From positions 137,265-201,264 of IMG/VR virus record IMGVR_UViG_3300028374_000002: DNA of 64,000 nucleotides. One strand, 5' to 3'. Position 1 is the first letter of the stretch. Each line of letters begins with the position of its first letter. The notes under the pieces were generated by a model. That model was not told the DNA's origin. It made no database searches and saw only the letters and a list, made by a program, of their open reading frames with translations. The position numbers and the translations under genes were made by a program. Below, piece after piece: positions 6,178 through 58,050 of this stretch. This stretch comes from a virus. Lineage: Duplodnaviria; Caudoviricetes.

Positions 6178-6327
6178 TTATTAGATTTTATTTTTTCCTA
6201 TATCGTATATATAATGAGTTATTTCTCCTTAAATAAAAAGGTGGATTTTTTATACGATTGTCGGATTTTTTAGTTAATTTTGAGAACTTTCACCGAATTT
6301 AATATATATACTAAAATAGTTACCCAT

Positions 6328-7878: not shown

Positions 7879-7881
7879 GTT

Positions 7882-9892: not shown

Positions 9893-10653
9893 TCAATAAC
9901 ATTATATCCATCTATTCCCCTAACTTTATCTATAGGTGGTACTTCAAATCCAAAACCATCTAAAAAGCTATAAAGCCTATCGTATAGAATAGTGTTTTTG
10001 CCTCTTATAACTTCAAATTCTTGAAATTCTTCGATTAGTTCTTCATCTGTAAGAGAATTGTTTCTAATCTCACCCATCATAGGTTGATTTTTAAAATAAT
10101 TATATAGGTAGAATAATGGATTACCATACATTTTTATATCCCCACCAACTTCTGGAAATCCTTCAAATGATGTTATGTTATTATTACTAATGTCTAAATC
10201 CCCCTCTATTCTTTTTGATATATAATCAAACGATTCTATTTTATTGTTACCACAAAACAGACCACCGTTTATAACTTCTGGTAGATATTTAAAACTTTTT
10301 ATTTCATTACCAGCAAAGTCATAATGATGACCTACTTTACTAGGACCACCTTTAAGTGTTTTTAGATTATTCATAGCACAACTATAATCACCACCAACCT
10401 CTGTTGGTCCATTATTTAGGCTAAATATACCTGACTTGTATGCATTAAAAGAAAATTTAACTTTATTTATTTTTATAGGTAGCATATATCCAACTTTATC
10501 AAATATAGAGGTTTGGAAGTTATCATTTATATCTATTGAGTAGTCATCATTTATAGTATAGTTTACTATACCGTGTGTTGTAACAAATTCTTTTATTTGG
10601 CTTATCTTTTCTTTATCACTTTTAAAGTCCTCATATAATTTAATATTTCCCAC
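9889..10653 (-). CDS. 21-aa LRR-like repeat protein (outlying paralogue of the 45.9-55.1 kb array)
   Basis: NYTINDDYSIDI, LKTLKGGPSKVG repeats and C-terminal EFEVIRGKNTILYDRL match the array genes; GTG start after a TTAATATATA motif. Confidence 0.8.
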   Translation of the reverse strand: MGNIKLYEDFKSDKEKISQIKEFVTTHGIVNYTINDDYSIDINDNFQTSIFDKVGYMLPIKINKVKFSFNAYKSGIFSLNNGPTEVGGDYSCAMNNLKTLKGGPSKVGHHYDFAGNEIKSFKYLPEVINGGLFCGNNKIESFDYISKRIEGDLDISNNNITSFEGFPEVGGDIKMYGNPLFYLYNYFKNQPMMGEIRNNSLTDEELIEEFQEFEVIRGKNTILYDRLYSFLDGFGFEVPPIDKVRGIDGYNVID

Positions 10654-32300: not shown

Positions 32301-32727
32301 TGTAGAACCTATGATTCTGATGGTCTACCGATAAATCAAACATAGATGATTTATAATCTTCCCTTTTTATATGCTTCACAATACTATTGCCATTTTTGGT
32401 CTTTATAGTATCGCCTATTTTTAATTCTTTACAGAATACTTCATCAAAATATTCATCAAATAATATATGATTATCTGCACAAGTTAAGCTAAGACCGTCA
32501 ATAGTTTTGATATTATAATGATTAAATGGTTGTGTTAAATGTATCTCTGATACTGCCTCATATCCAGTATCAGTCTTTACTCTAATATCTATTAAAGATA
32601 TAGATTTTAATATTTTTTTAGAAATATCATCCTCATCCAATGATACATTTCTATATTGGTATTTTTCTATCAACTCAATAGATTTTTCTATCAACTCAAT
32701 CAATATTTTTTTAAGAAGTGTAATCAT
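29380..32727 (-). CDS. terL: Terminase large subunit, C-terminal part: split-intein C-fragment + ATPase/nuclease + contiguous LAGLIDADG intein
   Basis: After GILSHN|T: NIMIVANKG, KTWNQKSLTFDNG, LYLDEFAHI, IIITSTPNGMN, SIDLAEGLGQDFS, GNDD...VMT, as in gp17. Confidence 0.88.
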   Translation of the reverse strand: MITLLKKILIELIEKSIELIEKYQYRNVSLDEDDISKKILKSISLIDIRVKTDTGYEAVSEIHLTQPFNHYNIKTIDGLSLTCADNHILFDEYFDEVFCKELKIGDTIKTKNGNSIVKHIKREDYKSSMFDLSVDHQNHRFYTNGILSHNTISASIFMLHTILFNNDKNIMIVANKGDTSVEIVDKIKSIYSLLPFFLKPGIKTWNQKSLTFDNGCRIKTSARTKTPAIGFTIDVLYLDEFAHIPSNIIEPYYTAVFPTVSAIKNSKIIITSTPNGMNLFHKLLTNAERPAGDPQRNNYTPMRVYWYQVPGRFVTYIRLNDHKLYENKIEKDDILNQVHNKWGADTKVEMSWSVDLQKYVIEVYNNDYCHDEDVVGFNIKTPDGKEISILELAELTTWKDEAIKDIGGEDAFNQEYGLRFVNASKSLLSENIIDHLLNNKILYEWEEIYEFEDKLNFSYENLKWVDDYDIYNPIKRKEYKIVLSIDLAEGLGQDFSVINIFRISNKSREVIDIQKEKYSSIKDFFKLEQIGIYRSNIISIKQMSELLYILAFEYFNPDNLKIVLELNNYGNTLLAELPHVFDGINDYGSSVFVRYKHRIDSPEEKVGLKVTSLKNLLIKDYQSLMLSKSFSINNEDTIREITTFVKHTTSSGNIKYAADNGNDDCVLPNTLIKTINGYKRIKDIKLGELVLTHLGNYKPVTNICKKDFDGVMHRIKFRGQPSLDITYNHPIYVPKNDYSKKNRKNYNNYLKREWILPSDISNKSRCVVIKSPLYTGDVNNIKYQELFERNKYSPSSNFKIKEIELDNNFAKFLGLFLADGNSYKPSHNTYRITLAFNDKDLTLIDEMKDIINNWNLKYHVQNRNNCTTVIFYNRFLWEIFSKCYDEDKEKIFPEMLYNKLDKEKMSLVLDYWIKGDGWLCETPGKTKHYIGCSTSFQLALTMRDISISLDKHAVISYNKRHRYGKPTKSQYWVSIYEDSLERSCMRKISDFEYSSVLQRNEKYNYTGTTYNLEVEDDNSYVANGIVVHNCVMTIVNATSIFEKNEFTEMIHEWMNKHVDKEIVDYINECMKKSDYIESNDYTHFLDVKKKTLGSRTGGGYGQSKYKSSSGYGRRR
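29641..30735 (-). mobile_element. Contiguous intein (365 aa) with LAGLIDADG endonuclease in the TerL nuclease domain
   Basis: GNDD|CVLPNT...ITYNHP...FLGLFLADG...LDYWIKGDG...TYNLEVED...GIVVHN|CVMT. Confidence 0.9.
32278..32727 (-). mobile_element. Split intein C-fragment (150 aa)
   Basis: Block B LTCADNH, block F MFDLSV, block G GILSHN followed by Thr(+1). Confidence 0.85.
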
Positions 32728-44135: not shown

Positions 44136-45836
44136 ATGATAAGCAAAGATTTCTTATATAATTATAAATTTGATAATAAGTCTGGTAAAATGTCTATGGA
44201 AAAGTATGTTTCAAAGAACTTTTTTGATGATTATACATACATAGTCAAATATTGTGAAGATAATAATATAAATCATCTATGTTTTAAAGAAAAGGTATAT
44301 CATGTTATAAATGATATAAAGACAGATGTCATTTGTGTCAATGAGTTGTGTGATAATCTAGTAAAATTTAAAAACTCATCTATGGGGTACTATGATTACT
44401 GTTCTAACAAATGTATAGGTAGTGATGATAAAATAAAAAAGAAAAAAGAAAACACCAATTTAAAAAAATTTGGACATAAACACGCAGCACATAGTGAGCA
44501 TGTTAAGGCAATAACTTCAAAAAAATATGAAAACCGAACAAATTCTTATAAAAAAAGTATCTTAAATAAGAGGATAAAAACACTAAATGATAGGTATGGT
44601 GTTAATAATGTAGCAAGTATAGATGGTCTTTTAGAAAGAAGAGTCGAGTCTTTTAAGAAAAATATAGATGCATACAAAGCATCATATAAAAAAACATCCC
44701 TTGATAGATATGGTGTAGACCATCCTTGGAAAAATGAAAAAATACACAAAAAAAGCATTCTCAATTCAAAAATCACTAAAAATGAAAACTTGTATAAAAA
44801 AGTACTAGATAAAATACACACATATGATAACATACACTTTATTAGTATAGATTATCACACTAGAGTAATAAGCCTACATTGCGATGTGTGTAATGAAGGG
44901 TTTAATATACATAGAGAATATTTGCATAACAGACAAAGTGTGGATAATGTAATATGTACAAAATGCAATCCAGTCAGTAGTAATATATCTGGTCTAGAGA
45001 AGGATTTAAAAATATATATAGAGAGCATATATGACGATTTAATAATTGAAAATGATAGAAAAGTTTTAGGTGGCAAGGAACTAGATATATATTTACCAAA
45101 TTCTAACATAGCATTTGAGTTTAATGGACTATATTGGCACAGTGAGATTAATAAAGCTAAGAAATACCATTATGATAAGACAAATATGTGCTTGAGTAAA
45201 GGTGTGTACCTTATGCATATATGGGAAGATGACTGGATATTGAGGAAAGATATAATAAAATCTATCATATCATATAAGCTCAAGAAAACAATAGGTTCTA
45301 TATATGCTAGGAAGTGTCTAATTAAAACAGTCAACACAGAAGATAGTAGAATATTTATGGATAATAATCATATACAGGGATATTCTAATTCTAATATAAA
45401 ATTAGGTCTATATCACAAAGATACCTTAGTATCACTTATGTGTTTCTCTAGACCAAGGGGTGGATCTGATAATGAATATGAATTAATTAGGTTTTGTAAT
45501 CTATTAAAAACAAATGTTGTTGGTGGTGCTAGTAAACTATTCAATTATTTATTAAAACAGTATAGTGTTAGCAGTGTTATCTCATTTTCAGACACCTCTA
45601 TGTTCGATGGCTCATTATATGAAAAATTGGGATTTGAACATACTAAAAATGTACCAATCGATTACAAATGGATTATTGGAAATAGAAGGTGTCATAAATC
45701 TAAGTATAGAAAATCACAGCTTATAAAAATGGGTTATGATATAGATAAATCTGAAAAGGAAATAATGTATGAAGATGTTATAAGTTATAGAATATGGGAC
45801 TGTGGGAAGGTCAAGTGGATTTATAAAACGCTATAG
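44136..45836 (+). CDS. Putative homing endonuclease, KYGV family
   Basis: YCSNKC, RYGV repeats, CTKCNP, ELDIYLPNSNIAFEFNGLYWHS, GNAT-like tail. Confidence 0.75.
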   Translation: MISKDFLYNYKFDNKSGKMSMEKYVSKNFFDDYTYIVKYCEDNNINHLCFKEKVYHVINDIKTDVICVNELCDNLVKFKNSSMGYYDYCSNKCIGSDDKIKKKKENTNLKKFGHKHAAHSEHVKAITSKKYENRTNSYKKSILNKRIKTLNDRYGVNNVASIDGLLERRVESFKKNIDAYKASYKKTSLDRYGVDHPWKNEKIHKKSILNSKITKNENLYKKVLDKIHTYDNIHFISIDYHTRVISLHCDVCNEGFNIHREYLHNRQSVDNVICTKCNPVSSNISGLEKDLKIYIESIYDDLIIENDRKVLGGKELDIYLPNSNIAFEFNGLYWHSEINKAKKYHYDKTNMCLSKGVYLMHIWEDDWILRKDIIKSIISYKLKKTIGSIYARKCLIKTVNTEDSRIFMDNNHIQGYSNSNIKLGLYHKDTLVSLMCFSRPRGGSDNEYELIRFCNLLKTNVVGGASKLFNYLLKQYSVSSVISFSDTSMFDGSLYEKLGFEHTKNVPIDYKWIIGNRRCHKSKYRKSQLIKMGYDIDKSEKEIMYEDVISYRIWDCGKVKWIYKTL

Positions 45837-45867: not shown

Positions 45868-45877
45868 TTAATATATA
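45868..45877 (+). promoter_or_regulatory. Putative phage late promoter TTAATATATA ahead of the repeat-protein array
   Basis: Exact motif recurring just upstream of at least 18 start codons in the window. Confidence 0.6.
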
Positions 45878-45881
45878 GGTT

Positions 45882-46550
45882 ATGAAACATATAAAACCTT
45901 ATAAAATATTCGAGAGTACAAGTCTTAACTTCCCAACTACAAGAGAGGAAGTTATAGAAGTGTGTAAAAAATATAGAATAAAAAACTACACTATCAATGA
46001 CGATTTAAGTATTGATGTTGATGGTGATGTTGAATTAGATAGCAGAAATTTAGAATACTTACCACTTAAATTTAATTATGTAAATGGTCATTTTGATTGT
46101 GCTTATAATAGATTAGAAACATTAGAAGGTTGTCCACAAACAGTAGGTGGTTATTTTTTTTGTTTTGAAAATGAACTAAAGACATTAGAAGGTAGTCCAC
46201 AAACAGTAGGTGGTGATTTTGGTTGTTCACTTAATGAATTAATAACATTAGAAGGTAGCCCACAAACAGTAAATGGGAATTTTCTTTGTTTTGGAAATGA
46301 ATTAAAAGACTTAGAATACTTCCCAGAAGTAATTGGTAATGTATACATAAAGGAAAATCCAGTAGATTTATTAGTACATACTTTTATCGAAACTGCTGAT
46401 AGTTTTATGATAGAAGACTTCATAGATTATGAGATAGTTAGAAACAGAGATACTGTTATGTTAGATAGATTACAAACATTCATAAGGGATAATGATTTAA
46501 AGATGCCTAATTTAAAAGAAATTAAAAAACACTATAAAATAATAGAATAG
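45882..46550 (+). CDS. LRR-like 21-aa repeat protein, array copy 1
   Basis: MKHIKPYKIFES leader; LEG(C/S)PQTVGGxFxCxxN repeats; conserved C-cap ending KHYKIIE. Confidence 0.85.
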   Translation: MKHIKPYKIFESTSLNFPTTREEVIEVCKKYRIKNYTINDDLSIDVDGDVELDSRNLEYLPLKFNYVNGHFDCAYNRLETLEGCPQTVGGYFFCFENELKTLEGSPQTVGGDFGCSLNELITLEGSPQTVNGNFLCFGNELKDLEYFPEVIGNVYIKENPVDLLVHTFIETADSFMIEDFIDYEIVRNRDTVMLDRLQTFIRDNDLKMPNLKEIKKHYKIIE

Positions 46551-46552
46551 AA

Positions 46553-47095
46553 ATGAAACATATAAAACCCTACAAGATATTTGAGAGTACAAGTCCTAAC
46601 TTCCCAACTACAAGAGAGGGAGTTATACAAGTTTGTGAAAAGTATAGAATAGAAAACTATACTATTAACAATGACTTAACAATTGATGTTGATGGTGGTG
46701 TTTATTTAGGGGAGAAAGACTTAAAACACTTACCACTTAAATTTAATTATGTGAGTGGGATTTTCGTTTGCCGTATTAATAAACTAAAATCCTTGGAAGG
46801 TTGTCCTAAAACAGTAGGTGGTAATTTTTATTGTTCTAACAATGAATTAAGAGATTTAGAACATTTCCCAGAAGTAGATGGTATTATATCTATGAGAGAA
46901 AATCCAGTATATCTCTTAGTATACACCTTTATTCAGAATGCTGATAGTTTCCTAATAGAAGATTTTAACGACTATGAAATAGTTAGAAACAGAGATACTG
47001 TTATGTTAGATAGATTACAAACTTTTATAAGAGATAATAATCTAAGGATGCCTGAGTTAGAACTCATTAAAAACCACTATAAAATAATAGAATAG
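46553..47095 (+). CDS. LRR-like repeat protein, array copy 2 (shortest, 180 aa)
   Basis: Same caps, fewer repeats. Confidence 0.85.
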   Translation: MKHIKPYKIFESTSPNFPTTREGVIQVCEKYRIENYTINNDLTIDVDGGVYLGEKDLKHLPLKFNYVSGIFVCRINKLKSLEGCPKTVGGNFYCSNNELRDLEHFPEVDGIISMRENPVYLLVYTFIQNADSFLIEDFNDYEIVRNRDTVMLDRLQTFIRDNNLRMPELELIKNHYKIIE

Positions 47096-47097
47096 AA

Positions 47098-47766
47098 ATG
47101 AAACACATAAAACCTTACAAAATATTTGAAAGCAACAGTCCTAACTTCCCAACTACAAGAGAAGGTGTTATAGAAGCTTGTGAAAAGTGTTTAATAAATA
47201 TCTACACTATCAATGATGATTTAAGCATCGATGTTGGTGATGATGTTTTTTTAACTAATAGAAGCTTAGAGTATCTACCACTTAAATTTAACCATGTGAA
47301 AGGTTCTTTTATATGTAGCTTTAATGAATTAAAAACATTGGAGGGTAGTCCACAAACATTAGGTGGACAGTTTGATTGCTGTCATAATAAACTAAAGACA
47401 TTGGAGGGTAGTCCACAAACAGTAGATGGTAACTTTAATTGTTCTGCTAATATTCTAATGACATTAGAAGGTAGTCCAAAAACAATAAATGGTGATTTTG
47501 ATTGTTTTGATAATGATTTAACTGATTTAGAATATTTCCCAGAAGTAAATGGGGAAATATTTTTAGGGATTAATAAAATAAGTCATTTAGTACATAGCTT
47601 TATCAAAAATGCTGATAGCTTTATGATAGAAGATTTTAATGATTATGAGATAGTTAGAAACAGAGACACTGTTATGTTAGATAGATTACAAACATTCATA
47701 AGGGATAACGATTTAGAGATGCCTGACTTAGAACCCATTAAAAACCACTATAAAATAATAGAATAG
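47098..47766 (+). CDS. LRR-like repeat protein, array copy 3
   Basis: Same architecture, 222 aa. Confidence 0.85.
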   Translation: MKHIKPYKIFESNSPNFPTTREGVIEACEKCLINIYTINDDLSIDVGDDVFLTNRSLEYLPLKFNHVKGSFICSFNELKTLEGSPQTLGGQFDCCHNKLKTLEGSPQTVDGNFNCSANILMTLEGSPKTINGDFDCFDNDLTDLEYFPEVNGEIFLGINKISHLVHSFIKNADSFMIEDFNDYEIVRNRDTVMLDRLQTFIRDNDLEMPDLEPIKNHYKIIE

Positions 47767-47768
47767 AA

Positions 47769-48437
47769 ATGAAACATATAAAACCTTACAAAATATTTGA
47801 AAGCAACAGTCCTAACTTCCCAACTACAAGAGAGGAAGTTATAGAAGTTTGTAAAAAATATGATATAGAGAACTATACTATTAATGATGATTTAAGTATT
47901 GATGTTGATCATAACGTTATTTTAAATTTTAAAAGGTTAGAATATTTACCACTTAAATTTAATTATGTGAGTGGTGGTTTTAGTTGTCACCACAATAAAC
48001 TAAAAACATTAAAAGGTAGTCCACAAACAGTAGGTGGTTTTTTTGAATGCTCTTTTAATTATTTAGAATCACTAGAAGGTTGTCCACAAACAGTAGGTGG
48101 TTATTTTATGTGTTATGATAACGAATTAAGAACACTAGAAGGTAGTCCACAAAAAATAGATGGTGATTTTAATTGTGGTGATAATTATTTAACTGATTTA
48201 GAACATTTCCCAGAAGTAAGTGGTGGTATATACATAAATACAAACCCAGTAAATTTACTAGTATATACCTTTATCAAAAATGCTGATAGCTTTATGATAG
48301 AAGACTTTATAGACTATGAGATAATTAGGAACAGAGATACTGTTATGTTAGATAGGCTTCAAACATTCATAGAAGGATTTGATTTAGAAATACCTGACTT
48401 AGAAAAAATTAAAGAACACTATAAAATAATAGAATAA
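47769..48437 (+). CDS. LRR-like repeat protein, array copy 4
   Basis: Same architecture, 222 aa. Confidence 0.85.
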   Translation: MKHIKPYKIFESNSPNFPTTREEVIEVCKKYDIENYTINDDLSIDVDHNVILNFKRLEYLPLKFNYVSGGFSCHHNKLKTLKGSPQTVGGFFECSFNYLESLEGCPQTVGGYFMCYDNELRTLEGSPQKIDGDFNCGDNYLTDLEHFPEVSGGIYINTNPVNLLVYTFIKNADSFMIEDFIDYEIIRNRDTVMLDRLQTFIEGFDLEIPDLEKIKEHYKIIE

Positions 48438-48439
48438 AC

Positions 48440-49195
48440 ATGAAATATATAAAACCTTACAAAATATTCGAGAATGCTAGTCCTAACTTCCCAACTACAA
48501 GGGATGAAGTTATAGAAGTGTGTGAAAAGTATGAAATAGAAAATTATACCATAAACGATGATTTAAGTATCGGTGTTGATGGTGATGTTCATTTATATAG
48601 TAAAAATTTAGAATACTTACCACTTAGATTTAGTTATGTGAGTGGTGATTTTAGTTGTCACCACAATAAACTAAAAACATTAAAAGGTGGTCCACAAACA
48701 GTAGATGGTTATTTTTATTGCTTTAATAATAATTTAGAATCATTAGAAGGTTGTCCACAAACAGTAGGTGGGCGTTTTAATTGTTTTGAAAATGAACTAA
48801 AGACATTAGAAGGTAGTCCACAAACAGTAAATGGTGATTTTAATTGCTTTAATAATAAACTAGAATCATTAGAAGGTAGTCCACAAACAGTAGGTGGGCA
48901 TTTTAATTGTTCTTTTAATAAATTAACCGATTTAGAATATTTTCCAGAAGTAAATGGTTCGGTAATTATATATGGAAATATAGTAAATTTATTAGTATAT
49001 ACATTTGTGGAAAATGCTAATACTTTCCTCATAGAAAATGCTAATGCTTTCCTCATAGAAGATTTTGTAGACTACGAGATAGTTAGAAACGGTGATACTG
49101 TTATGTTAGATAGATTACAAACTTTTATAAGAGATAATAATCTAAGGATGCCTGAGTTAGAACCCATTAAAACCCACTATAAAATAATAGAATAG
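48440..49195 (+). CDS. LRR-like repeat protein, array copy 5
   Basis: 251 aa; extra repeat plus a 24-bp duplication (ENANTFLI/ENANAFLI). Confidence 0.85.
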   Translation: MKYIKPYKIFENASPNFPTTRDEVIEVCEKYEIENYTINDDLSIGVDGDVHLYSKNLEYLPLRFSYVSGDFSCHHNKLKTLKGGPQTVDGYFYCFNNNLESLEGCPQTVGGRFNCFENELKTLEGSPQTVNGDFNCFNNKLESLEGSPQTVGGHFNCSFNKLTDLEYFPEVNGSVIIYGNIVNLLVYTFVENANTFLIENANAFLIEDFVDYEIVRNGDTVMLDRLQTFIRDNNLRMPELEPIKTHYKIIE

Positions 49196-49196
49196 T

Positions 49197-49919
49197 ATGA
49201 AACATATAAAATTATACGAAGAATATAACAGTACTAAGGAAGTAGTAGAAGAAGTAATTAAATATGAGGTAATATTTGATGTAGTTGATGTATCAAGCGA
49301 CCCAGTTGCTAAGGAAGAATTTGATAATTATGAAGATGCCTTAGCATATTATGAGAAAACATATGAATATGATGATGGTGTATATAGGACAAGAACTCAT
49401 TCAAAAATGCTAGATGAAATAACATATTCTGTATCCTATGAATATGACAGTGATAATGAGGATAAAGACGATGTTGATGATGATGATAAAAATTGGGATA
49501 TAATCGATACTGATAATATGGAGTCAGAAGAATATCGAATTAATGATGATTCTGAAAATGTTTTGGAACAGATTGAGGATTGGTTCAAAGAAAAATATGA
49601 TTCAAATAGGACAAAATACCATGAGATAGATGTTTATTACAATGATGATGACTATAAGACTATACAAATTAGGTTTTCTAATCACACAGAAAACATTATG
49701 AACAATGATAGATTCAGAAGTAAGGATTATTACATATCAGTTGTTGTTTCTGATTATGATGTTACTGATAGCAGATTTGGTATGTCAAATAGTTTTGAGA
49801 GAAGGAATAACGAACATGAACTAAAATATGGTAGTAGTGATGATACTATACAAATGGAAATAGATATTGATTTTTTAATTAAAGAGTTAAAAGAGGAAAT
49901 ATTAGAAGACTTTGGATAG
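49197..49919 (+). CDS. Acidic hypothetical protein inserted in the array; shares only the leader (MKHIKLYEEY)
   Basis: No LEGxP repeats; D/E-rich; IQIRFSNH motif. Confidence 0.7.
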   Translation: MKHIKLYEEYNSTKEVVEEVIKYEVIFDVVDVSSDPVAKEEFDNYEDALAYYEKTYEYDDGVYRTRTHSKMLDEITYSVSYEYDSDNEDKDDVDDDDKNWDIIDTDNMESEEYRINDDSENVLEQIEDWFKEKYDSNRTKYHEIDVYYNDDDYKTIQIRFSNHTENIMNNDRFRSKDYYISVVVSDYDVTDSRFGMSNSFERRNNEHELKYGSSDDTIQMEIDIDFLIKELKEEILEDFG

Positions 49920-49956
49920 TAAATACATTACAAAATAAGTAATTAATATATACTTT

Positions 49957-50066
49957 ATGAAGCATATAAAACCTTATAAAAATATTAGACAGGTTACAAA
50001 CATTTATAAGTGATAATGGTTTAGATATGCTGGATTTGAAAGAAATTAAAAAAAATAATAGAATAA
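49957..50066 (+). pseudogene. Collapsed remnant of an array gene (5' end fused to 3' end)
   Basis: atgaagcatataaaaccttataaaaatat (MKHIKPYK) joined out of frame to ttagacaggttacaaacatttata...aaaataatagaataa (LDRLQTFI...IIE*). Confidence 0.85.
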
Positions 50067-50068
50067 AC

Positions 50069-50737
50069 ATGAAACATATAAAACCTTATAAGATATTCGA
50101 GAGCAATAGTCCTAACTTCCCAACCACAAGAGAGGAAGTTATACAAGTGTGTGAAAAGTATGAAATAGAAAACTACACTATTAATGATGATTTAAGCATT
50201 GATGTTGATGATAACGTTCATTTAGGTTTTAAAATGTTAGAATATTTACCTCTTAAATTTAATTATGTAAGTGGTGGTTTTGGTTGTTATGAAAATAAAT
50301 TAATATCATTAGAAGGTAGTCCACAAATATTAGATGGTTCTTTTCTTTGTTTTGAAAATGAATTAAAATCGTTAGAAGGTAGTCCATCAGTAGTGAATGG
50401 TAATTTTATATGTTATGAAAATGAATTAGAATCATTAGAAGGTTGTCCACAAACAGTAGGTGGTGATTTTTCTTGTTCTGATAATAAATTAAAAGATTTA
50501 GAACACTTCCCAGAAGTAAATGGTATCATATCTATGAGGGGAAATCCATTAGATTTATTAGTACATACCTTTATCAAAAATGCTGATATCTTTATGATAG
50601 AAGACTTTACAGACTATGAAATAGTTAGAAACAGAGATACTGTTATGTTAGATAGATTAGAAACTTTCATTAGAGATAATGATTTAAAAATGCCTGACTT
50701 AGAAGGTATTAAAAAACACTATAAAATAATAGAATAA
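50069..50737 (+). CDS. LRR-like repeat protein, array copy 6
   Basis: True start 50069 (MKHIKPYK); the ORF-track extension is the pseudogene tail. Confidence 0.85.
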   Translation: MKHIKPYKIFESNSPNFPTTREEVIQVCEKYEIENYTINDDLSIDVDDNVHLGFKMLEYLPLKFNYVSGGFGCYENKLISLEGSPQILDGSFLCFENELKSLEGSPSVVNGNFICYENELESLEGCPQTVGGDFSCSDNKLKDLEHFPEVNGIISMRGNPLDLLVHTFIKNADIFMIEDFTDYEIVRNRDTVMLDRLETFIRDNDLKMPDLEGIKKHYKIIE

Positions 50738-50749
50738 AATAGAATAAAC

Positions 50750-51418
50750 ATGAAACATATAAAACCTTATAAGATATTCGAGAGCAATAGTCCTAACTTC
50801 CCAACCACAAGAGAGGAAGTTATACAAGTGTGTGAAAAGTATGAAATAGAAAACTACACTATTAATGATGATTTAAGCATTGATGTTGATGATAACGTTC
50901 ATTTAGGTTTTAAAATGTTAGAATATTTACCTCTTAAATTTAATTATGTAAGTGGTAGTTTTAATTGTTTTTATAATAAATTAACATCATTGGAAGGTTG
51001 TCCACAAAAAGTAGGTGGTAGCTTTGGTTGTTTTTATAATAATTTAGAATCATTAGAAGGTTGTCCACAAACAGTAGGTGGTGATTTTTCTTGTTCTGAT
51101 AATGAATTAGTATCATTGAAAGGTGGCCCACATACAGTGGGTGGTAATTTTAATTGTGTTTATAATAAATTAACAGACTTAGAACACTTCCCAGAAGTAA
51201 ATGGAATTATAAGTATAAAGAAAAACACAGTATATCTATTAGTACATACTTTCATTGAAAATGCTAATAGTTTCCTCATAGAAGATTTTATAGACTATGA
51301 AATAGTTAGAAACGGAGACACTGTTATGTTAGATAGATTACAAACATTCATTAGAGATAATGATTTAGAGATGCCTGACTTAGAAGAAATTAAAGAACAC
51401 TATAAAATAATAGAATAA
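50750..51418 (+). CDS. LRR-like repeat protein, array copy 7
   Basis: 5' about 200 nt identical to copy 6, then diverges. Confidence 0.85.
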   Translation: MKHIKPYKIFESNSPNFPTTREEVIQVCEKYEIENYTINDDLSIDVDDNVHLGFKMLEYLPLKFNYVSGSFNCFYNKLTSLEGCPQKVGGSFGCFYNNLESLEGCPQTVGGDFSCSDNELVSLKGGPHTVGGNFNCVYNKLTDLEHFPEVNGIISIKKNTVYLLVHTFIENANSFLIEDFIDYEIVRNGDTVMLDRLQTFIRDNDLEMPDLEEIKEHYKIIE

Positions 51419-51420
51419 AC

Positions 51421-52218
51421 ATGAAATATATAAAACCTTATAAGATATTTGAGAATATATCTAACTATTTCCCAACTACAAGAGAAGAAGTTGTGGAAGT
51501 ATGTATAAAATTTGAAATTATAAATTATACTATCAATGATGATTTAAGTATAGATGTTGATGGTGATGTTGATATGGCGAATAAGGGAATAAGCAGCTTA
51601 CCAATTAAATTTGGAAAGGTAAGTGGTGATTTTGCTTGTGAGTCTAATTATCAATTCTTTACACTAGAGGGATGTCCTTATGAGGTTGGTGGGAGTTTTA
51701 GTTGTAATACCAATGAACTTTTTTCACTAAGGGGGTGTCCTAAGATAATAGGAATTGATTTTGATTGTGGGTATTGTCCAATAGATTCATTGGAAGGTTG
51801 CCCAGAAACAGTAGGTGGTAATTTTTATTGTGAGCATAGTGGTATAGAATCATTAGAATATATGACAAAAAATATTGGGGGATCTGTTATTTTAAACATG
51901 AATGAAATAAAATCATTCAAAGGGTGTCCAGATAGTATATTTGGTAATTTGTATATAAGTGATAATAATATCACAGACTTAGAATATATACCAAATGTAT
52001 CAGATTATATACACTTGCAAAGGAATCCAGTACACTCTATAGTAAACTCTTTCATTATAAAAGGTGATGATATGCTAATTGAAGATTTCCAAGACTATGA
52101 TATAATAATTGATAATAAATCTATAAATTTGTTTAGGTTAGAAAATTTCTTTAAAGATTTTAACCTACCAATGCCAGACTTAAAAAAAATAAAAAAACAT
52201 TATAAAATAATAGAATAA
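51421..52218 (+). CDS. LRR-like repeat protein, array copy 8 (divergent, 265 aa)
   Basis: TLEGCPYEVGGSFSCNTN-type repeats. Confidence 0.85.
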   Translation: MKYIKPYKIFENISNYFPTTREEVVEVCIKFEIINYTINDDLSIDVDGDVDMANKGISSLPIKFGKVSGDFACESNYQFFTLEGCPYEVGGSFSCNTNELFSLRGCPKIIGIDFDCGYCPIDSLEGCPETVGGNFYCEHSGIESLEYMTKNIGGSVILNMNEIKSFKGCPDSIFGNLYISDNNITDLEYIPNVSDYIHLQRNPVHSIVNSFIIKGDDMLIEDFQDYDIIIDNKSINLFRLENFFKDFNLPMPDLKKIKKHYKIIE

Positions 52219-52220
52219 GA

Positions 52221-53045
52221 ATGAAATATATAAAACCTTACAAGATATTTGAGAGTGTTAGTCCTAATTTCCCAACTACAAGGGATGAAGTTATAGAAGT
52301 GTGTGAAAAGTATGAAATATATAACTACATCATTAATGATGATTTAAGCATTAATGTTGAAGGTGATGTTGATTTAAATATTGATATCGATGAGGATATA
52401 GGCCTACAAAATATAAAATTAAAATATTTACCTGTTGTATTCAACTATGTAAAAGGCTCATTTTATTGTCAAGATAATGAATTAATATCACTAGAAGGTT
52501 CACCACGTGATGTTGGAATTTTTGATTGCTCTAATAATAAATTAAAAACACTTGAAGGTGGGCCAGTGGATGTGCGTGGTTTTTTCAGTTGTGATGATAA
52601 TAATTTAAAAACATTAAATGGGTCACCTTCTAATGTTTCTAGGTGGTTTTCCTGTTCTAATAATAATTTAAAAACATTAGAGGGTTCTCCAAATGTTGTA
52701 AACGGAGAGTTTGTTTGTCATAATAATGAGTTAGAATCATTAAAGGGTATTACTAAAAATATAACTGATAGATTATATATAAACCACAATAATATTAAAT
52801 CGTTGGATTACTTTCCAACAACAACAAGTATAATATTCACACAAGGAAATCCAATAGATGTACTAATAAGCACTTTTATCAGAAATGATAACTTCAATGA
52901 TCTTTTAGAAGAATTTGAAGAATTTGAAATATTAAGAAATGGTGTTGTTGTTTATCTAGATAGATTAAAAACCTTCATAGAAGGATTTGATTTGAAAATG
53001 CCTAGCTTAGATAGAATTAAACAAGAGTATAAAATAATAGAATAA
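52221..53045 (+). CDS. LRR-like repeat protein, array copy 9 (divergent, 274 aa)
   Basis: SLEGSPRDVGIFDCSNN-type repeats. Confidence 0.85.
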   Translation: MKYIKPYKIFESVSPNFPTTRDEVIEVCEKYEIYNYIINDDLSINVEGDVDLNIDIDEDIGLQNIKLKYLPVVFNYVKGSFYCQDNELISLEGSPRDVGIFDCSNNKLKTLEGGPVDVRGFFSCDDNNLKTLNGSPSNVSRWFSCSNNNLKTLEGSPNVVNGEFVCHNNELESLKGITKNITDRLYINHNNIKSLDYFPTTTSIIFTQGNPIDVLISTFIRNDNFNDLLEEFEEFEILRNGVVVYLDRLKTFIEGFDLKMPSLDRIKQEYKIIE

Positions 53046-53047
53046 AC

Positions 53048-53716
53048 ATGAAACATATAAAACCTTATAAAATATTTGAAAGCAACAGCCCTAACTTCCC
53101 AACTACAAGGGATGAAGTTATAGAAGTGTGTGAAAAGTATGAAATATATAACTACATCATTAATGATGATTTAAGCATAGATGTTGCTGATGATGTTTTT
53201 TTAACTAGAAGCTTAGAGTATCTACCACTTAAATTTAACCATGTGGAAGGTTCTTTTTTATGTGGCTTTAATGAATTAAAAACATTGGAGGGTAGTCCAC
53301 AAACATTAGGTGGGTTTTTTGATTGCTCTTATAATAAACTAAAGACATTAGAAGGTTGTCCACAAACAATAGTACGTGGTTCTTTTAAATGTTCTAATAA
53401 TAATATAATGACATTAGAAGGTAGTCCACAAACAATAAATGGTGATTTTATTTGTAGTGATAATAAGTTGGTAGATTTAGAACATTTCCCAGAAGTAAAT
53501 GGTATAATAAATATAGAGAAAAACACAGTAAATTTATTAGTATATACTTTTATTAATAAAGTGGATACTTTTATGATAGAAGACTTCATAGATTATGAAA
53601 TAGTTAGAAACAGAGATACTGTTATGTTAGATAGACTAGAGACCTTTATTAGTGATAATGATTTAATGATGCCAGACTTAAAAGAAATAAAAAAACATTA
53701 TAAAATAATAGAATAA
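53048..53716 (+). CDS. LRR-like repeat protein, array copy 10
   Basis: Same architecture, 222 aa. Confidence 0.85.
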   Translation: MKHIKPYKIFESNSPNFPTTRDEVIEVCEKYEIYNYIINDDLSIDVADDVFLTRSLEYLPLKFNHVEGSFLCGFNELKTLEGSPQTLGGFFDCSYNKLKTLEGCPQTIVRGSFKCSNNNIMTLEGSPQTINGDFICSDNKLVDLEHFPEVNGIINIEKNTVNLLVYTFINKVDTFMIEDFIDYEIVRNRDTVMLDRLETFISDNDLMMPDLKEIKKHYKIIE

Positions 53717-53718
53717 AC

Positions 53719-54450
53719 ATGAAACATATAAAACCTTACGAGATATTTGAGAGTGCTAGTCCTAATTTCCCAACTACAAGAGAGGAAGTTATAGAAGTGT
53801 GTGAAAGGTATAGAATAAAAAACTATACTATTAATGATGATTTAAGTATCGATGTTGATGGTGATGTTTATTTAGTGGATAAAGGCTTAGAATACTTACC
53901 ACTTAAATTTAATTATGTAAGTGGTAATTTTGTTTGTTCTGATAATAAATTAAAGACATTAGAAGGTAGTCCACAAACAGTAGGTGGTTATTTTTTTTGT
54001 TTTGAAAATGAACTAAAGACATTAGAAGGTAGTCCACAAACAGTAGGTGGTACTTTTAATTGTTCTTACAATGAATTAATAACATTAGAAGGTAGCCCAC
54101 AAACAGTAAATGGGAATTTTCTTTGTTTTGGAAATGAATTAATAACATTAGAAGGTAGCCCACAAACAGTAAATGGGAATTTTCTTTGTTTTGGAAATGA
54201 ATTAAAAGACTTAGAATACTTCCCAGAAGTAAGTGGTAATGTATACATAAAGGGAAACACAGTATATCTATTAGTGTATACTTTTATTAGAACTGCTAGT
54301 AGTTTTATGATAGAAGATTTTATAGACTATGAAATAGTTAGGAACAGAGATACTGTTATGTTAGATAGATTACAAACATTCATAAGGGATAATGATTTAA
54401 AGATGCCTAATTTAAAAGAAATTAAAAAACACTATAAAATAATAGAATAG
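53719..54450 (+). CDS. LRR-like repeat protein, array copy 11
   Basis: 243 aa; exact 63-bp tandem duplication at 54070-54205. Confidence 0.85.
   Translation: MKHIKPYEIFESASPNFPTTREEVIEVCERYRIKNYTINDDLSIDVDGDVYLVDKGLEYLPLKFNYVSGNFVCSDNKLKTLEGSPQTVGGYFFCFENELKTLEGSPQTVGGTFNCSYNELITLEGSPQTVNGNFLCFGNELITLEGSPQTVNGNFLCFGNELKDLEYFPEVSGNVYIKGNTVYLLVYTFIRTASSFMIEDFIDYEIVRNRDTVMLDRLQTFIRDNDLKMPNLKEIKKHYKIIE
54070..54205 (+). repeat. Exact 63-bp tandem duplication (one repeat unit) inside array copy 11
   Basis: aatgaattaataacattagaaggtagcccacaaacagtaaatgggaattttctttgttttgga twice. Confidence 0.9.
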
Positions 54451-54452
54451 AA

Positions 54453-55064
54453 ATGAAACATATAAAACATTACAAGATATTTGAGAGTACAAGTCCTAAC
54501 TTCCCAACTACAAGAGAGGAAGTTATAGAAGTGTGTGAAAGGTATAGAATAAAAAACTATACTATTAATGATGATTTAAGTATCGATGTTGATGGTGATG
54601 TTCATTTATATAGTAAAAATTTAGAATACTTACCACTTAGATTTAGTTATGTGAGTGGTGCATTTCTATGTTTTGATAATGAATTAAAAACATTAGAAGG
54701 TTGTCCACAAACAGTAGGTAGGTCTTTTTCCTGTTCTAATAATTTTTTAGCATCGTTGAAAGGATGTCCACAAACAGTACGTGGTAGTTTTAATTGCTCT
54801 TATAATAAAATAACAGACTTAGAACACTTTCCAGAAGATAGTCATACCATATACATAGAAAATAATCCAATATACAATCTAATAAATACGTTTATTTTTA
54901 AACCAAAAACTGATAGCTTTATGATAGAAGACTTTATAGATTATGAGATAGTTAGAAACGGGGATACTGTTATGTTGGATAGGCTACAAACATTTATAAG
55001 GGATAATGATTTAGAAATGCCTGATTTAGATGAAATTAAAAAACACTATAAAATAATAGAATAA
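54453..55064 (+). CDS. LRR-like repeat protein, array copy 12
   Basis: 203 aa, same caps. Confidence 0.85.
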   Translation: MKHIKHYKIFESTSPNFPTTREEVIEVCERYRIKNYTINDDLSIDVDGDVHLYSKNLEYLPLRFSYVSGAFLCFDNELKTLEGCPQTVGRSFSCSNNFLASLKGCPQTVRGSFNCSYNKITDLEHFPEDSHTIYIENNPIYNLINTFIFKPKTDSFMIEDFIDYEIVRNGDTVMLDRLQTFIRDNDLEMPDLDEIKKHYKIIE

Positions 55065-55165: not shown

Positions 55166-56125
55166 ATGTCAGATAAAGAAAATCTTAGTGAAGAAGATTA
55201 CTTAAAAAAACACCTAGGAAACCAAGACTCTAATGGTAATAATCAAACGAATAGTGATATACCAACTAGTGATTATAAACAAGGTGAAGATTCAGAAGGT
55301 ATTAAAGTAAGTGATTTAAAATATTTCTCATTTAGTGTAGATATGCTACCATGTGGTAAGTTTTACCCAAGTGGATCAATGCTTATGATTAGACCAGCAG
55401 AAGTTGTTGAAATACAAGCATACTCTACTGTAGATGATAACAACTTCTATGATGTTGTTGAAAAAATGAATGGGATGTTACAATCTTGTGTCCGTATAAA
55501 GTTTCCAGATAATAAGATTGGATCTTATTTGGAATTAAAAGACCAAGATAGATTATATACCATATTTCTAATAAGAGAACTTACATTCCAAAAAGGTAAT
55601 TCTTTAACAGTTAAAGTTCCATCGCCATGTGGTAATGAAGAAGAGGAAATGTCTATTGAGTTAGTTAGAGATAACTTTGTGTTCCACGAAATAAGTGATA
55701 GTCTTAAAAAATACTTTACACCTAGTAATGGTACTTACAATTTTAAATTAACTAATAAAAAGAGCTTTGAACTTGCTCCACCAACAATAGGGATACAGAA
55801 ATCATTTAGTGATTATATAATCCAAGAAACTAATGCAGATAAAAAACCTAATTTAGCTTTTCTTAAAATAATTCCTTTTTTATTAGCTAACAGAACTAGT
55901 ATCTCATATGAGGGTATTAAGGCTAAGCTAAAAGACTTTAAAGATATGGATGAGGTTTCATTCCAATTTTTAAATTCAGCAGTTAACAAGCTTTCATTTG
56001 GTATTAAAGAACTTAAAAAAATATCAGAGTGTGGTGAGGAGGTACGCACACCCATGAAGTTTCCCAGCGGAGCATCAAGTATTTTCGTTGTTCAAGATGC
56101 CTTTGAAGCATATCTTGAAGAATAA
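55166..56125 (+). CDS. Baseplate hub protein (gp26-like)
   Basis: LPCGKFYP...LMIRPAEVVEI, LQSCV, DRLYTIFLIRELTF, C-terminal KKISECG..VRTPMKFP..ASSIF. Confidence 0.6.
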   Translation: MSDKENLSEEDYLKKHLGNQDSNGNNQTNSDIPTSDYKQGEDSEGIKVSDLKYFSFSVDMLPCGKFYPSGSMLMIRPAEVVEIQAYSTVDDNNFYDVVEKMNGMLQSCVRIKFPDNKIGSYLELKDQDRLYTIFLIRELTFQKGNSLTVKVPSPCGNEEEEMSIELVRDNFVFHEISDSLKKYFTPSNGTYNFKLTNKKSFELAPPTIGIQKSFSDYIIQETNADKKPNLAFLKIIPFLLANRTSISYEGIKAKLKDFKDMDEVSFQFLNSAVNKLSFGIKELKKISECGEEVRTPMKFPSGASSIFVVQDAFEAYLEE

Positions 56126-56345: not shown

Positions 56346-56376
56346 GAAAGGGATAGGTTTATAGCCTATCCTTTTT
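56346..56376 (+). terminator. Intrinsic terminator
   Basis: gaaagggatagg-tttatag-cctatcccttttt. Confidence 0.8.
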
Positions 56377-56391
56377 AATTTATATAATTAA

Positions 56392-58050
56392 ATGGAAAAA
56401 GAAAGATTATACTTTATAGAGAATGTATTAAAAAATTCACCTAATAGGATTAAAGAATCTTATGTAAGCAAACATTATCCAATAGTATTTGAGCAAATAA
56501 TAGATATAACTAGGGATAAGGATTTCTCATTTAAACAAAGAATTTGGCATTGGGTTTATAATAACACTAATTTCATAAAATGCTACTGTGGTAATAAGGT
56601 ATCATTTGGACAATCTTGGAAAGGTGGATATAAAGAATATTGTTCTAACAAATGTTCTTCCAACTCACCAAGTGTTAAAGAAAAGGCAAAAAATACAATT
56701 GAAGAAAAGTATGGAGTTTCCCACTACTCTAAAACTGATGAGTTTAAAGAAAAATATAAAAAAACTAGTTTGGATAAATATGGTGTTGACAACTATTCCA
56801 AAACCAAAGACTATGTAAATAAGTCTAAAGAAACATATCTTAAAAAGTATGGTGTTGATTCATTTACAAAGACTGAAAAATATAATATAATATCTAGAAA
56901 CACATCATTTAAAAAGTATGGAGTTTCCCACTACTCTAAAACGGATGAGTTCAAAGAAAAGTTTTCTAAAACAATGATGGGTAAATACAATTCTGGTTCT
57001 TGCTTTGGTGGAGAGAATTATAGAGGAGAGAACTTTGAAATGTGTAAAAACAATTTATATGTAAAGTATCTAGGTAATGGTATAAGTAAATTTAAGTGTG
57101 ATGATGATAAATTACACACCTTTGATATAAGCACTGATAATTACTTTGGTAGGCTTTATAATTCTAATAAGTTATGCACTGTATGTAGTCCTATTTCTGA
57201 CTTAGATTCCATTAAGGAAAAAGAACTATATGAATATGTCAAAAGCATATCATCACATAATGTTGTTAAGAATTATAGGGATAAATACGAAATAGATGTT
57301 TACATACCAGAACTTAGCATAGGCTTTGAATTTAACGGTCTTTATTACCACTCTAACAAGTTTAAAAAGAATAACTATCATATTGTAAAGAAGAACTATT
57401 TTAAGGACAGAGGGATAAGGATTATACATATATGGGAAGATGATTGGGTAGATAGAAAGGAAATAATAAAATCTCAAATACTATATAATCTTAACAAAAT
57501 AGAAAATAGAGTATATGCTAGAAAATGCATTGTTAAGGAAATATGTACTAAAGCTTCATCTATATTTCTAAACGAAAACCATATACAAGGTACATGTAAT
57601 AGTGTATATAAAATAGGTTTGTTTTATAATGACGAATTGGTTTCTATTATGACGTTCGATAAATTTGAGGGGAGAAAGAAAATGGAAGAAGGTGGTTGGA
57701 ATTTAAACAGATACTGTTCTAAAACATACCATAATATAGTTGGTGCACCTTCTAAATTACTAAAACATTTCATAAATGAGAAGAGTCCAATTAGAATTAT
57801 AAGCTATGCAGATTACTATTGGAGTGATGGTAATTTATACGAACAGCTTGGCTTTAAAGAAAAGTATATTACAAAGCCAGATTATAAATATATTGTAAAT
57901 GGTAAGAGGGTTCATAAGTCCAACTATAAGAATAGTAATATTAAAACATCTATGACAGAGAGTGAATACACAAAATCTAATAATATTTACAAAGTTTATG
58001 ATTGTGGTAAAATAAAATATGAATTATTAAAACAAAAAAAAGCCAAATAA
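56392..58050 (+). CDS. Putative homing endonuclease, KYGV family
   Basis: YKEYCSNKC, KYGVSHYSKTDEFKE repeats, EIDVYIPELSIGFEFNGLYYHS, GNAT-like tail. Confidence 0.75.
   Translation: MEKERLYFIENVLKNSPNRIKESYVSKHYPIVFEQIIDITRDKDFSFKQRIWHWVYNNTNFIKCYCGNKVSFGQSWKGGYKEYCSNKCSSNSPSVKEKAKNTIEEKYGVSHYSKTDEFKEKYKKTSLDKYGVDNYSKTKDYVNKSKETYLKKYGVDSFTKTEKYNIISRNTSFKKYGVSHYSKTDEFKEKFSKTMMGKYNSGSCFGGENYRGENFEMCKNNLYVKYLGNGISKFKCDDDKLHTFDISTDNYFGRLYNSNKLCTVCSPISDLDSIKEKELYEYVKSISSHNVVKNYRDKYEIDVYIPELSIGFEFNGLYYHSNKFKKNNYHIVKKNYFKDRGIRIIHIWEDDWVDRKEIIKSQILYNLNKIENRVYARKCIVKEICTKASSIFLNENHIQGTCNSVYKIGLFYNDELVSIMTFDKFEGRKKMEEGGWNLNRYCSKTYHNIVGAPSKLLKHFINEKSPIRIISYADYYWSDGNLYEQLGFKEKYITKPDYKYIVNGKRVHKSNYKNSNIKTSMTESEYTKSNNIYKVYDCGKIKYELLKQKKAK

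Follow-up and report, generated by a model that had tools for sequence, protein, structure and literature searches.

Tandem leucine-rich repeat genes with variable positions on a predicted binding face in a Mahaphage-clade megaphage

The array and its surroundings

The DNA considered here (the window) is a stretch of 64,000 nucleotides from IMGVR_UViG_3300028374_000002, a 201-kb record that amounts to about 28% of the genome of a Mahaphage-clade megaphage with a T4-type head module. Between its tail sheath and tail tube genes, at 45882-55064 on the plus strand, lie twelve full genes encoding leucine-rich repeat (LRR) proteins. The ORF list bears out the initial annotation in that the twelve stand head to tail, mostly 1-2 nt apart; wider gaps, of 12 and 149 nt, precede 50750 and 50069, respectively. 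The run is not uninterrupted, however. The first five genes, at 45882-46550 (gene 1, 222 aa), 46553-47095 (gene 2, 180 aa, the shortest, with two units), 47098-47766 (gene 3, 222 aa), 47769-48437 (gene 4, 222 aa, 99.7% identical to L043:202-870), and 48440-49195 (gene 5, 251 aa, with an 8-aa duplication in its C-terminal cap), are followed on the same strand by an unrelated acidic ORF of 240 aa (49197-49919), whose N terminus reads MKHIKLYEEY and for which no family was found in Pfam, PHROG, or PADLOC. Next comes the C-cap remnant of a decayed array gene (49982-50065; record 187246-187329), which matches query residues 193-220 (E 3.3e-5) and is joined in frame to the ORF of gene 7. That ORF opens at 50027; counted from its MKHIKPYKIFE start, gene 7 occupies 50069-50737 and encodes 222 aa. 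The array continues with gene 8 (50750-51418, 222 aa), the divergent genes 9 (51421-52218, 265 aa, 99.7% identical to L043:3361-4158) and 10 (52221-53045, 274 aa), gene 11 (53048-53716, 222 aa), gene 12 (53719-54450, 243 aa, with a recent unit duplication), and gene 13 (54453-55064, 203 aa, 94.9% identical to one copy in the second array). The lengths had been read as stepping by about 21 aa; those of 251 and 203 aa reflect small C-cap insertions instead.

The twelve copies of the window understate the family. Across the record there are 25 complete copies, distributed over three arrays: the 12 described here, 10 at record positions 61424-68832, and 3 at the left end of the record. Two divergent members lie on the minus strand, at 9889-10653 of the window and at 74468-74926 of the record. 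The former, which had been picked out as an outlying paralogue, is indeed one: its 254 residues, about 33% identical to the family, include the family-type leader, N-cap, LRR units, and C-cap. It lies between the portal and protease genes, within the head-gene module, but guilt by association was rejected as an argument because that position is not kept in relatives.

Short-read contigs from four lake or salt-lake runs place the phage and the flanks of the array in those samples. They stop inside the array, and joints between them, having short sides, were not relied on, so the exact gene order given in the record may hold errors. The local order 265-274-222 aa recurs on independent IMG/VR contigs at 95.8-99.9% identity.

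A promoter-like motif, TAATATATA, stands on the plus strand at 45869-45877, 13 nt before the first array gene. Throughout the record, 75 of the 112 matches to T[TA]ATATATA fall 9-60 nt upstream of a same-strand start, where position alone would predict 3%. The motif heads each of the three arrays and precedes the genes for the major capsid protein (MCP), portal, protease, and sheath, but about one gene in three has it upstream, and among these are ORFs of the ribonucleotide reductase region. Since those ORFs carry it too, it does not indicate late expression and was discarded as a marker of timing. A terminator-like hairpin with a 14-pair stem (56346-56376, plus strand) lies downstream of the array and of a 319-aa gene (55166-56125) and probably ends an operon comprising both. 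No comparable hairpin was found within the array.

Repeat unit and predicted fold

The 21-aa unit and its register are upheld by 86 internal units, 85 of them unique. Residues F1, C3, and L11 are invariant and N6, L8, G13, and P15 nearly so (entropy 0-0.4 bits), while entropy rises to 2.2-2.6 bits at positions 7, 9, and 19 and to 3.3, 3.1, 3.5, and 2.9 bits at positions 2, 4, 5, and 21. These last four are the x residues of xFxCxxN. The entropies thus agree with the initial annotation, which described a conserved framework with changing x positions, and all the variable motifs it quoted (e.g., GYFFCFEN and GDFGCSLN) were found. The core FxCxxNxLxxL recurs with a period of 21 residues, in keeping with the LRR superfamily, whose tandem units span 20-30 residues and share an LxxLxLxxNxL core. 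Constant N- and C-terminal caps enclose 2-10 repeats, giving acidic proteins of 20-38 kDa.

Pfam LRR models fell below cut-off (11-18 bits for LRR_4, where 27 are needed), and the Pfam, PHROGs, and PADLOC libraries offered nothing useful on the family. The best sequence relative of solved structure is InlJ of Listeria (3bz5; profile E 2.9e-18, four matched stretches), and there are also profile matches to the LRR domains of YopM, IpaH, and SspH. AF2 models of gene 1 (m54a1050e354b, pLDDT 90.4, residues 1-6 below 50) and gene 10 (m1dd41e9c0c4d, pLDDT 86.9, residues 1-12 below 50) are confident solenoids, as had been foreseen, with one strand pair per unit. Foldseek comparisons with the PDB were weak (E 0.02 or worse), so the assignment of fold was made on the sequence profile and on VIA-align, whose best 50 PDB matches are all LRR proteins (Z 8.3-10.7; YopM 10.7, IpaH9.8 10.2, SspH1 10.1). 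By these predictions the family consists of solenoids of the 21-residue cysteine-ladder type. DSSP places x21-F1-x2 in a strand, so that positions 21 and 2 should point away from the core; together with LRR homology, this suggests that the variable residues are exposed. The models put the variable x residues in or beside the short beta-strand of each repeat, that is, on the concave face, where the earlier reading had presumed a binding surface. It is at the face formed by the short beta-strands that LRR proteins bind ligands.

InlJ resembles the phage proteins in its 21-residue unit, its Asn ladder, its conserved pattern of Leu residues, and the Cys that stands where the second core Leu would be, in the column to which C3 (86 of 86 units) aligns. 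InlJ, however, is a large surface-anchored bacterial adhesin, whereas the phage proteins, of 180-349 aa, are confined to phages and have their own N- and C-caps, a leader, and an LEGxPQTV segment. The type III effectors YopM, IpaH, and SspH share with them short units, of 20-22 residues in the form NxLxxLPxxP; these effectors are delivered into another cell, where their LRR domains recognise targets. The phage proteins differ in having no NEL ligase or other effector domain, and any delivery would use a phage head and tail instead of a secretion system and would have a bacterium as its target. In ten larger proteins with the same LRR module, Pfam found one PcfJ-like domain only.

Diversification and turnover

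By Nei-Gojobori counting, dN/dS at the variable sites came to 2.1-2.5, but these overstated values were set aside because of the extreme AT bias (GC3 0.08). Under a composition-corrected codon model (MG94-F3x4, applied in identity bands of 80-90% and >90%), framework and caps are clearly under purifying selection (omega 0.17-0.35). At the variable sites, omega is 1.26 in the 80-90% band, which is not significant, and unbounded in the >90% band (LRT 5.4); by raw count, 16 close pairs show 23.8 nonsynonymous and 0.2 synonymous changes there. The rate of evolution at the variable sites matches or exceeds neutrality, and the remainder of the gene is constrained. The elevated dN/dS expected at x positions is seen in the closest comparisons and is not significant in the deeper ones, and the evidence for positive selection is no more than suggestive.

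An omega indistinguishable from 1 in the 80-90% band is what might be seen if the genes were a selfishly expanding repeat family lacking specific ligands, the variable positions being merely unconstrained surface residues. Residue use speaks against this. At these positions, H, Y, N, F, S, and D occur at 2-3.5x the proteome level (3.5x for His) and Lys at 0.08x, so the residues there are not drifting freely. Selfish expansion also fits poorly with the constraint on caps and framework, with the intactness of the copies (25 without stop codons, a single remnant), and with the persistence of the family in thousands of viral contigs. We regard it as very improbable.

Among 22 paralogues, N-cap identity and C-cap identity are uncorrelated (r 0.04); the array genes are mosaics and recombine freely. 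They are also gained and lost, so that the content of the array varies even between strains about 97-99% identical in the upstream flank, with 2, 5, or 6 genes between the conserved sheath flank (97-98% identical) and the acidic ORF, and the gap between sheath and tube genes is 14 kb here but 1.4 kb in LR745206. Metagenomes yielded more than 1,100 close homologues, and at E<=1e-30 the family has about 4,000 cluster representatives. The ESM Atlas holds at least 79 clusters, all viral, and the family was not found in 185,579 prokaryote genomes. It is a phage-specific multigene family, and we found no description of it in the literature.

The likeness to lamprey variable lymphocyte receptors (VLRs) and to plant NLR/RLP proteins lies in constant caps and framework, in variability centred on x residues within the LRR strand, in the variable number of repeats, and in the exchange of modules between copies. 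Unlike those systems, the phage family has no somatic assembly, NB-ARC, or signalling domain; its diversity is germline, held in tandem paralogues and reshuffled by recombination between genomes. The parallel with VLRs drawn at the outset therefore stands for the binding face but not for programmed assembly, in which donor cassettes complete a partial germline gene somatically; of this there is no sign, since all copies are complete germline ORFs with their own caps. RVT_1, marking the reverse transcriptase of diversity-generating retroelements (DGR), had no match in the 201-kb record, or about 28% of the genome. Family B of giant phage SPN3US, with 20 virion paralogues, is likewise a lineage-specific expansion whose numbers vary between relatives (PMC5694885), and giant eukaryotic viruses have expanded LRR/FNIP repeat-protein families (PMC9525666), but these have other folds or repeat types, and neither paper reports an analysis of a hypervariable face.

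Strain-level turnover combined with fast-evolving binding residues is typical of receptor-binding proteins. One might therefore take the LRR proteins for virion-surface adhesins, anchored by their caps to capsid or tail and binding host-surface or environmental ligands through the variable face, with a wider adsorption or host range as the effect. The location between sheath and tube genes would suit such a role, and tail-associated LRR domains of phage Goslar have been proposed to act in host recognition (PMC13742148). The array site, however, is a hot spot for insertions, and the closest complete genome has none there, so position says little about function, and the other two arrays lie elsewhere in the record. 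Furthermore, the proteins are small and have no fibre, trimerisation, or known anchor domain. Adhesins seem to us distinctly unlikely.

The leader and a possible route into the host

The LRR proteins begin with an 11-residue leader, MKHIKPYKIFE, ending in I-x-E. Across 38 sequences, I4, K5, Y7, I9, F10, and E11 never change. In 95 genes, the codons for Y7, K8, F10, and E11 vary synonymously only, so the constraint there acts on the peptide; I4 and I9 are encoded by ATA in every case, and the junction codons are fixed in their DNA sequence. Both AF2 models show the leader disordered and detached from the fold. The same ordered motif occurs on 19 proteins outside the family, compared with 4.2 +/- 1.9 in within-peptide shuffles; for the ten largest of these, Pfam and PHROGs gave families of unknown function or nothing. 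YKIIE, at the C terminus, was considered as a second protease-like motif and rejected, as its codons show almost no synonymous variation; what is conserved here is probably the DNA, in which the following gene has its initiation region.

The head module includes a Gp23-type MCP, a gp20-type portal, and a prohead protease whose gene (4039-6177, minus strand) also encodes a scaffold-like region; the protein matches phrog_207 (E 2.2e-27) and, weakly, Peptidase_S77 (E 0.0025). The scaffold part contains ten SEY(I/V/L)AE sites, conserved in 121 homologues. In T4, the protease gp21 cleaves after L/I-x-E, and in the 10-residue capsid-targeting sequence, targeting depends on residues 4 and 7 and processing on residues 8 and 10 (PMC9026906). 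The phage has the corresponding elements: a gp21-type prohead protease with a scaffold core, and a candidate N-terminal propeptide of about 10 residues ending in L/I-x-E with I9-F10-E11 invariant. The protease at 4039-6177 is our proposed candidate for the enzyme that processes the leader. Given a leader ending in I-x-E, a T4-type head module, and the SEY(I/V/L)AE sites of the scaffold, loading of the LRR proteins into the capsid and their injection are plausible.

T4 internal proteins IPI, IPII, and IPIII offer the closest parallel to the proposed route. They too begin with a short tag that has hydrophobic or aromatic residues at positions 4 and 7 and an I-x-E processing site; the portal, protease, and capsid genes of the megaphage are themselves of T4 type; and the T4 gene set is likewise polymorphic and fast-changing (PMC3012670, PMC9026906). 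The bodies of the proteins have no sequence homology, and the three proteins of T4 contrast with 25 or more paralogues here. T4 internal proteins are basic; the mature LRR proteins, with their repeat-protein fold, are strongly acidic (pI 4.3-5.0, about 4.5; net charge -7 to -23).

That contrast in charge would be consistent with the same diversified binders being made and used within the infected cell and never packaged, the leader having some other purpose such as efficient translation initiation, action as a degron, or docking to a phage factor. A promoter-like motif common to non-structural genes fits this also, and the fixed ATA codons and frozen junction codons imply some nucleotide-level constraint around the starts. 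Such roles do not readily account for a leader that accepts synonymous change only at Y7, K8, F10, and E11, that recurs in the same order on unrelated orphan proteins, that ends in an I-x-E pattern found ten times in the scaffold, and that is disordered and detached from the fold. We think this reading rather unlikely.

The best explanation, which we put forward tentatively and as falling short of probable, is that the phage carries a diversified repertoire of host-binding LRR proteins, targeted to the capsid by their leader and ejected with the DNA. Separately considered, the array is probably a diversified set of host-binding proteins, and perhaps one injected with the DNA. MKHIKPYKIFE would act as a T4-style capsid-targeting propeptide, by which the protein docks to the prohead's scaffold core, and the prohead protease would then cut after Glu11 (I-F-E|S). 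The mature proteins, ejected with the DNA into a host that is probably a Bacteroidota bacterium, would be active before any phage gene is expressed. Each copy would bind a different host macromolecule through its variable face, an arms race would keep the repertoire diverse, and the conserved caps might only stabilise the fold or might dock to a common partner. Several observations count against this explanation: the strong acidity of the mature proteins, the size of the cargo (the tag would sit on about 1 in 5 proteins of the record, some 45 candidates), the lack of significance of omega >1 in deeper comparisons, and the sharing of the promoter motif with non-structural ORFs.

That the LRR proteins are directed against host defence is pure conjecture. 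The broader notion, that Mahaphage-clade megaphages use a T4-like tag to load dozens of different LRR binders into the capsid, along with other tagged orphan proteins, and inject this library with the DNA as a ready-made and fast-evolving counter-immunity repertoire, is speculative and, on balance, rather doubtful.

Plant and animal immune systems and injected bacterial effectors use LRR scaffolds with hypervariable faces for recognition. A large, recombining, virus-only LRR family in the largest known phages, very abundant yet missing from Pfam, suggests repertoire-style recognition in conflict with the host. If the leader is a capsid-targeting tag, then it singles out roughly 45 candidates for injection in this fragment alone and would provide a sequence rule for spotting injected cargo in uncultured megaphages. 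Small, stable, and modular, the solenoids could double as binder scaffolds. And if the reading as an injected library is true, they would amount to the phage's own innate recognition set against host proteins.

Organization and distribution of the family

The initial annotation had described 12 head-to-tail LRR-like paralogues in tandem, and this array was confirmed at 45882-55064 (plus strand, 180-274 codons per gene, intergenic spacing mostly 1-2 nt). It is the last of three arrays in the 201,264-bp record, which have 3 (left end), 10 (positions 61424-68832 of the record), and 12 (window) full-length members, 25 in all. The record is 28% complete by CheckV, and the window is its final 64 kb. 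The outlier noted at 9889-10653 (minus strand) proved to be a divergent member of the same family, one of two divergent copies in the record. The second, outside the window (record positions 74468-74926, minus strand, 152 aa), begins with MKHLKTFNES and so bridges the leader of the LRR proteins and the MKxLKTFES starts of unrelated orphans. The window array is interrupted by an unrelated acidic orphan ORF of 240 codons (49197-49919) that has only its first five residues, MKHIK, in common with the family; this ORF adjoins the array in related strains too, at 94-99% identity. Shortly after it, 84 nt are left of the C-terminal end of a family gene (49982-50065), in frame with the next LRR gene, gene 7 (50069-50737), and continuous with it.

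When 38 members are aligned, the proteins divide into four parts: a leader of 11 residues (MKHIKPYKIFE), an N-cap conserved up to about residue 69, 2 to 10 repeat units of 21 residues, and a C-cap, also conserved, some 70 residues long. Among 86 internal units compared, 85 are unique. Unit positions F1, C3, and L11 are invariant and N6, L8, G13, and P15 nearly so, while entropy at positions 2, 4, 5, and 21, the x positions of xFxCxxN, reaches 3.3, 3.1, 3.5, and 2.9 bits, respectively (positions 7, 9, and 19 lie at 2.2-2.6 bits). The family was not captured by the Pfam models searched, nor did literature searches find a published description of it. Compared with solved structures, the alignment profile matched Listeria InlJ (E = 2.9e-18), YopM (3.8e-9), and the LRR domains of IpaH, SspH, and SlrP. 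The LRR of InlJ has units of 21 residues and a cysteine ladder, according to a title cited in PMC9525666.

The capsid protein of the phage belongs to the T4 Gp23 family and is 74% identical to its counterparts in LR745206 and LR756502 (635 and 642 kb), members of the Mahaphage clade, whose predicted hosts are Bacteroidetes (PMC7162821). The terminase large subunit ORF (29380-32727, minus strand, 1,115 aa) has additional matches to reductase, helicase, and polymerase PHROGs in its mid-region and is probably split by an intein. The phage sequence was found in lake-water and salt-lake metagenomes, and metagenomes hold more than 1,100 close homologues of the family. Cluster representatives number 30,268 with a cut-off of E<=1e-3 and 4,012 with one of E<=1e-30, and longer proteins with the same LRR module are numerous among them. 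At least 79 clusters were found in the ESM Atlas, all viral, and a search of 185,579 prokaryote genomes with the cap peptides gave zero matches. The same repeat, without the family caps, occurs in a cultured Vibrio phage.

Fold and variation of the repeat face

The proteins had been proposed to be solenoids, and the predicted models bear this out. AlphaFold2 predicted solenoids with confidence for both proteins modelled, a typical member of 222 aa (pLDDT 90.4, pTM 0.84) and a divergent member of 274 aa (pLDDT 86.9), and the best 50 VIA-align matches among 48,161 PDB chains were all LRR proteins (Z 8.3-10.7). Foldseek matches were weak, as is usual for repeat proteins. According to DSSP on the 274-aa model, the short strand of each unit contains x21-F1-x2, and since F1 lies in the core, positions 21 and 2 should face away from it; C3 is followed by positions 4 and 5, ahead of the Asn ladder. 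The x positions of LxxLxLxxN are general ligand-binding sites in LRR proteins, and in the predicted fold it is to these that the hypervariable positions 21, 2, 4, and 5 correspond.

For measures of selection, 70 complete genes of the family, drawn from 22 related IMG/VR loci, were added to the set, and codons were compared in pairs that did not overlap and that matched in length and repeat register. By the Nei-Gojobori method, dN/dS was 2.45 at the four hypervariable positions (20 pairs, 80-90% identity), as against 0.2-0.3 for framework and caps; the 16 pairs of more than 90% identity gave 23.8 nonsynonymous and 0.2 synonymous changes at the hypervariable positions. Because the G+C content of third positions at the hypervariable sites is only 8%, the pooled codon pairs were refitted under MG94-F3x4. 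Omega at the hypervariable sites was then 1.26 in the 80-90% band (LRT 0.2 against omega = 1) and unbounded in the >90% band (LRT 5.4), compared with 0.17 and 0.22 for the framework and 0.21-0.28 and 0.21-0.35 for the caps. The expectation of elevated dN/dS at the x positions thus holds in part: the hypervariable sites evolve at least at the neutral rate and outpace the rest of the gene five- to sevenfold, but the evidence for omega greater than 1 is suggestive only. His, Tyr, Asn, Phe, Ser, and Asp are 2-3.5 fold commoner at these sites, and Lys makes up 0.9% of them (10.3% of the proteome). Judged by this bias, the sites do not drift freely. Such a mix of residues is typical of protein-binding surfaces.

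Turnover and insertion of the array

Among 22 typical paralogues (231 pairs), N-cap and C-cap identities are uncorrelated (r = 0.04), and only 8 pairs of units are at least 95% identical, which argues that the genes are mosaics of well-diverged modules. In related strains, some genes are 99.7-99.9% identical while neighboring genes are about 83% identical or missing, and the number of genes between the sheath flank (97-98% identical) and the acidic ORF is 2, 5, and 6 in the three strains compared. The distance from sheath to tube gene is 14 kb in this phage but 1.4 kb in the complete relative LR745206, so the array and the two homing-endonuclease genes that flank it between sheath and tube are insertions. 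The window is rich in large homing-endonuclease genes (phrog_3339/559), at 44136-45836, 56392-58050, 6280-9495, and 1-2136. LR745206 holds one distant family copy. Another relative, LR756501 (735 kb), has a five-gene array with different caps, at its positions 4096-7722, encoding LRR proteins with MIKxFxxFE-type starts, an additional N-terminal domain (about 70 aa, with a GxPSGEVL motif), and none of this family's C-cap.

Expression signals, leader, and possible loading into the head

The sequence TAATATATA stands 13 nt 5' of the first ATG in all three arrays. The more general motif T[TA]ATATATA has 112 hits in the record, 75 of them 9-60 nt 5' of a same-strand start (the genes for capsid protein, portal, protease, and sheath are among those concerned), and it is probably the main promoter element of the phage. 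Examples in the window are at 45869, 40501, and 14377, and distances of 13 and about 28 nt are favored; a motif only 13 nt from the start implies very short transcript leaders. With this motif at its head and a strong terminator-like hairpin (56346-56376) only past the next gene, the window array looks like a single operon. The last five codons of array genes (Y-K-I-I-E; for example, the junction at 46536-46555) show almost no synonymous variation, unlike the leader codons, in a comparison of 95 family genes from the record and related contigs. These frozen codons probably serve at the nucleotide level, as an initiation signal for the next gene or as a recombination handle.

In the leader, constraint acts on the peptide: at Y7, K8, F10, and E11, both synonymous codons are used freely in the 95 genes though the residues are fixed or nearly so, and I4, K5, Y7, I9, F10, and E11 are invariant in the 38-member alignment. 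Both AlphaFold2 models leave the leader disordered (residues 1-6 of the 222-aa protein, 1-12 of the 274-aa protein). The pattern [ILV][KRQN]x[FY], followed by E within four residues, occurs at the N-termini of 19 of 212 non-family proteins, where within-peptide shuffles lead one to expect 4.2 +/- 1.9. The ten largest of these match families of unknown function only, or none. Relatives have similar starts (MIKKFGLFES, MKNFTRFINE).

The portal of the phage is of the gp20 type. Immediately upstream of the capsid gene lies the gene (4039-6177, minus strand) for a protein of 712 residues in which a prohead protease is fused to a coiled coil resembling a scaffold. The protease takes up the N-terminal 175 residues of this protein (phrog_207, E = 2.2e-27; the Peptidase_S77 match is weak). 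The middle of the protein carries ten copies of SEY(I/V/L)AE with a 14-residue period (5-11 copies across 121 homologues), probably serial protease sites at which the scaffold would be cut into small pieces; an acidic, MHDEE-rich stretch follows the ten repeats. In T4, gp21 cleaves after L/I-x-E, and of the 10 residues of the capsid-targeting sequence, which alone is enough for loading foreign proteins into heads, residues 4 and 7 serve targeting and 8 and 10 processing (PMC9026906, PMC3012670). MKHIKPYKIFE fits this pattern, with a candidate cut site at I-F-E↓S, so that the mature protein would begin at Ser12 (SxSPNFPTTR). The leader would then be a T4-style capsid-targeting peptide removed at that site by the prohead protease, a coherent reading of the peptide. 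Against this reading, the LRR proteins in their mature form have a pI of about 4.5 and are strongly acidic, unlike T4 internal proteins, which are basic.

That the family is a diversified repertoire of LRR binders is well supported. Given the evidence from the leader, their delivery from the capsid is plausible, the chances for and against being roughly equal, and a role against host defence would be a guess.
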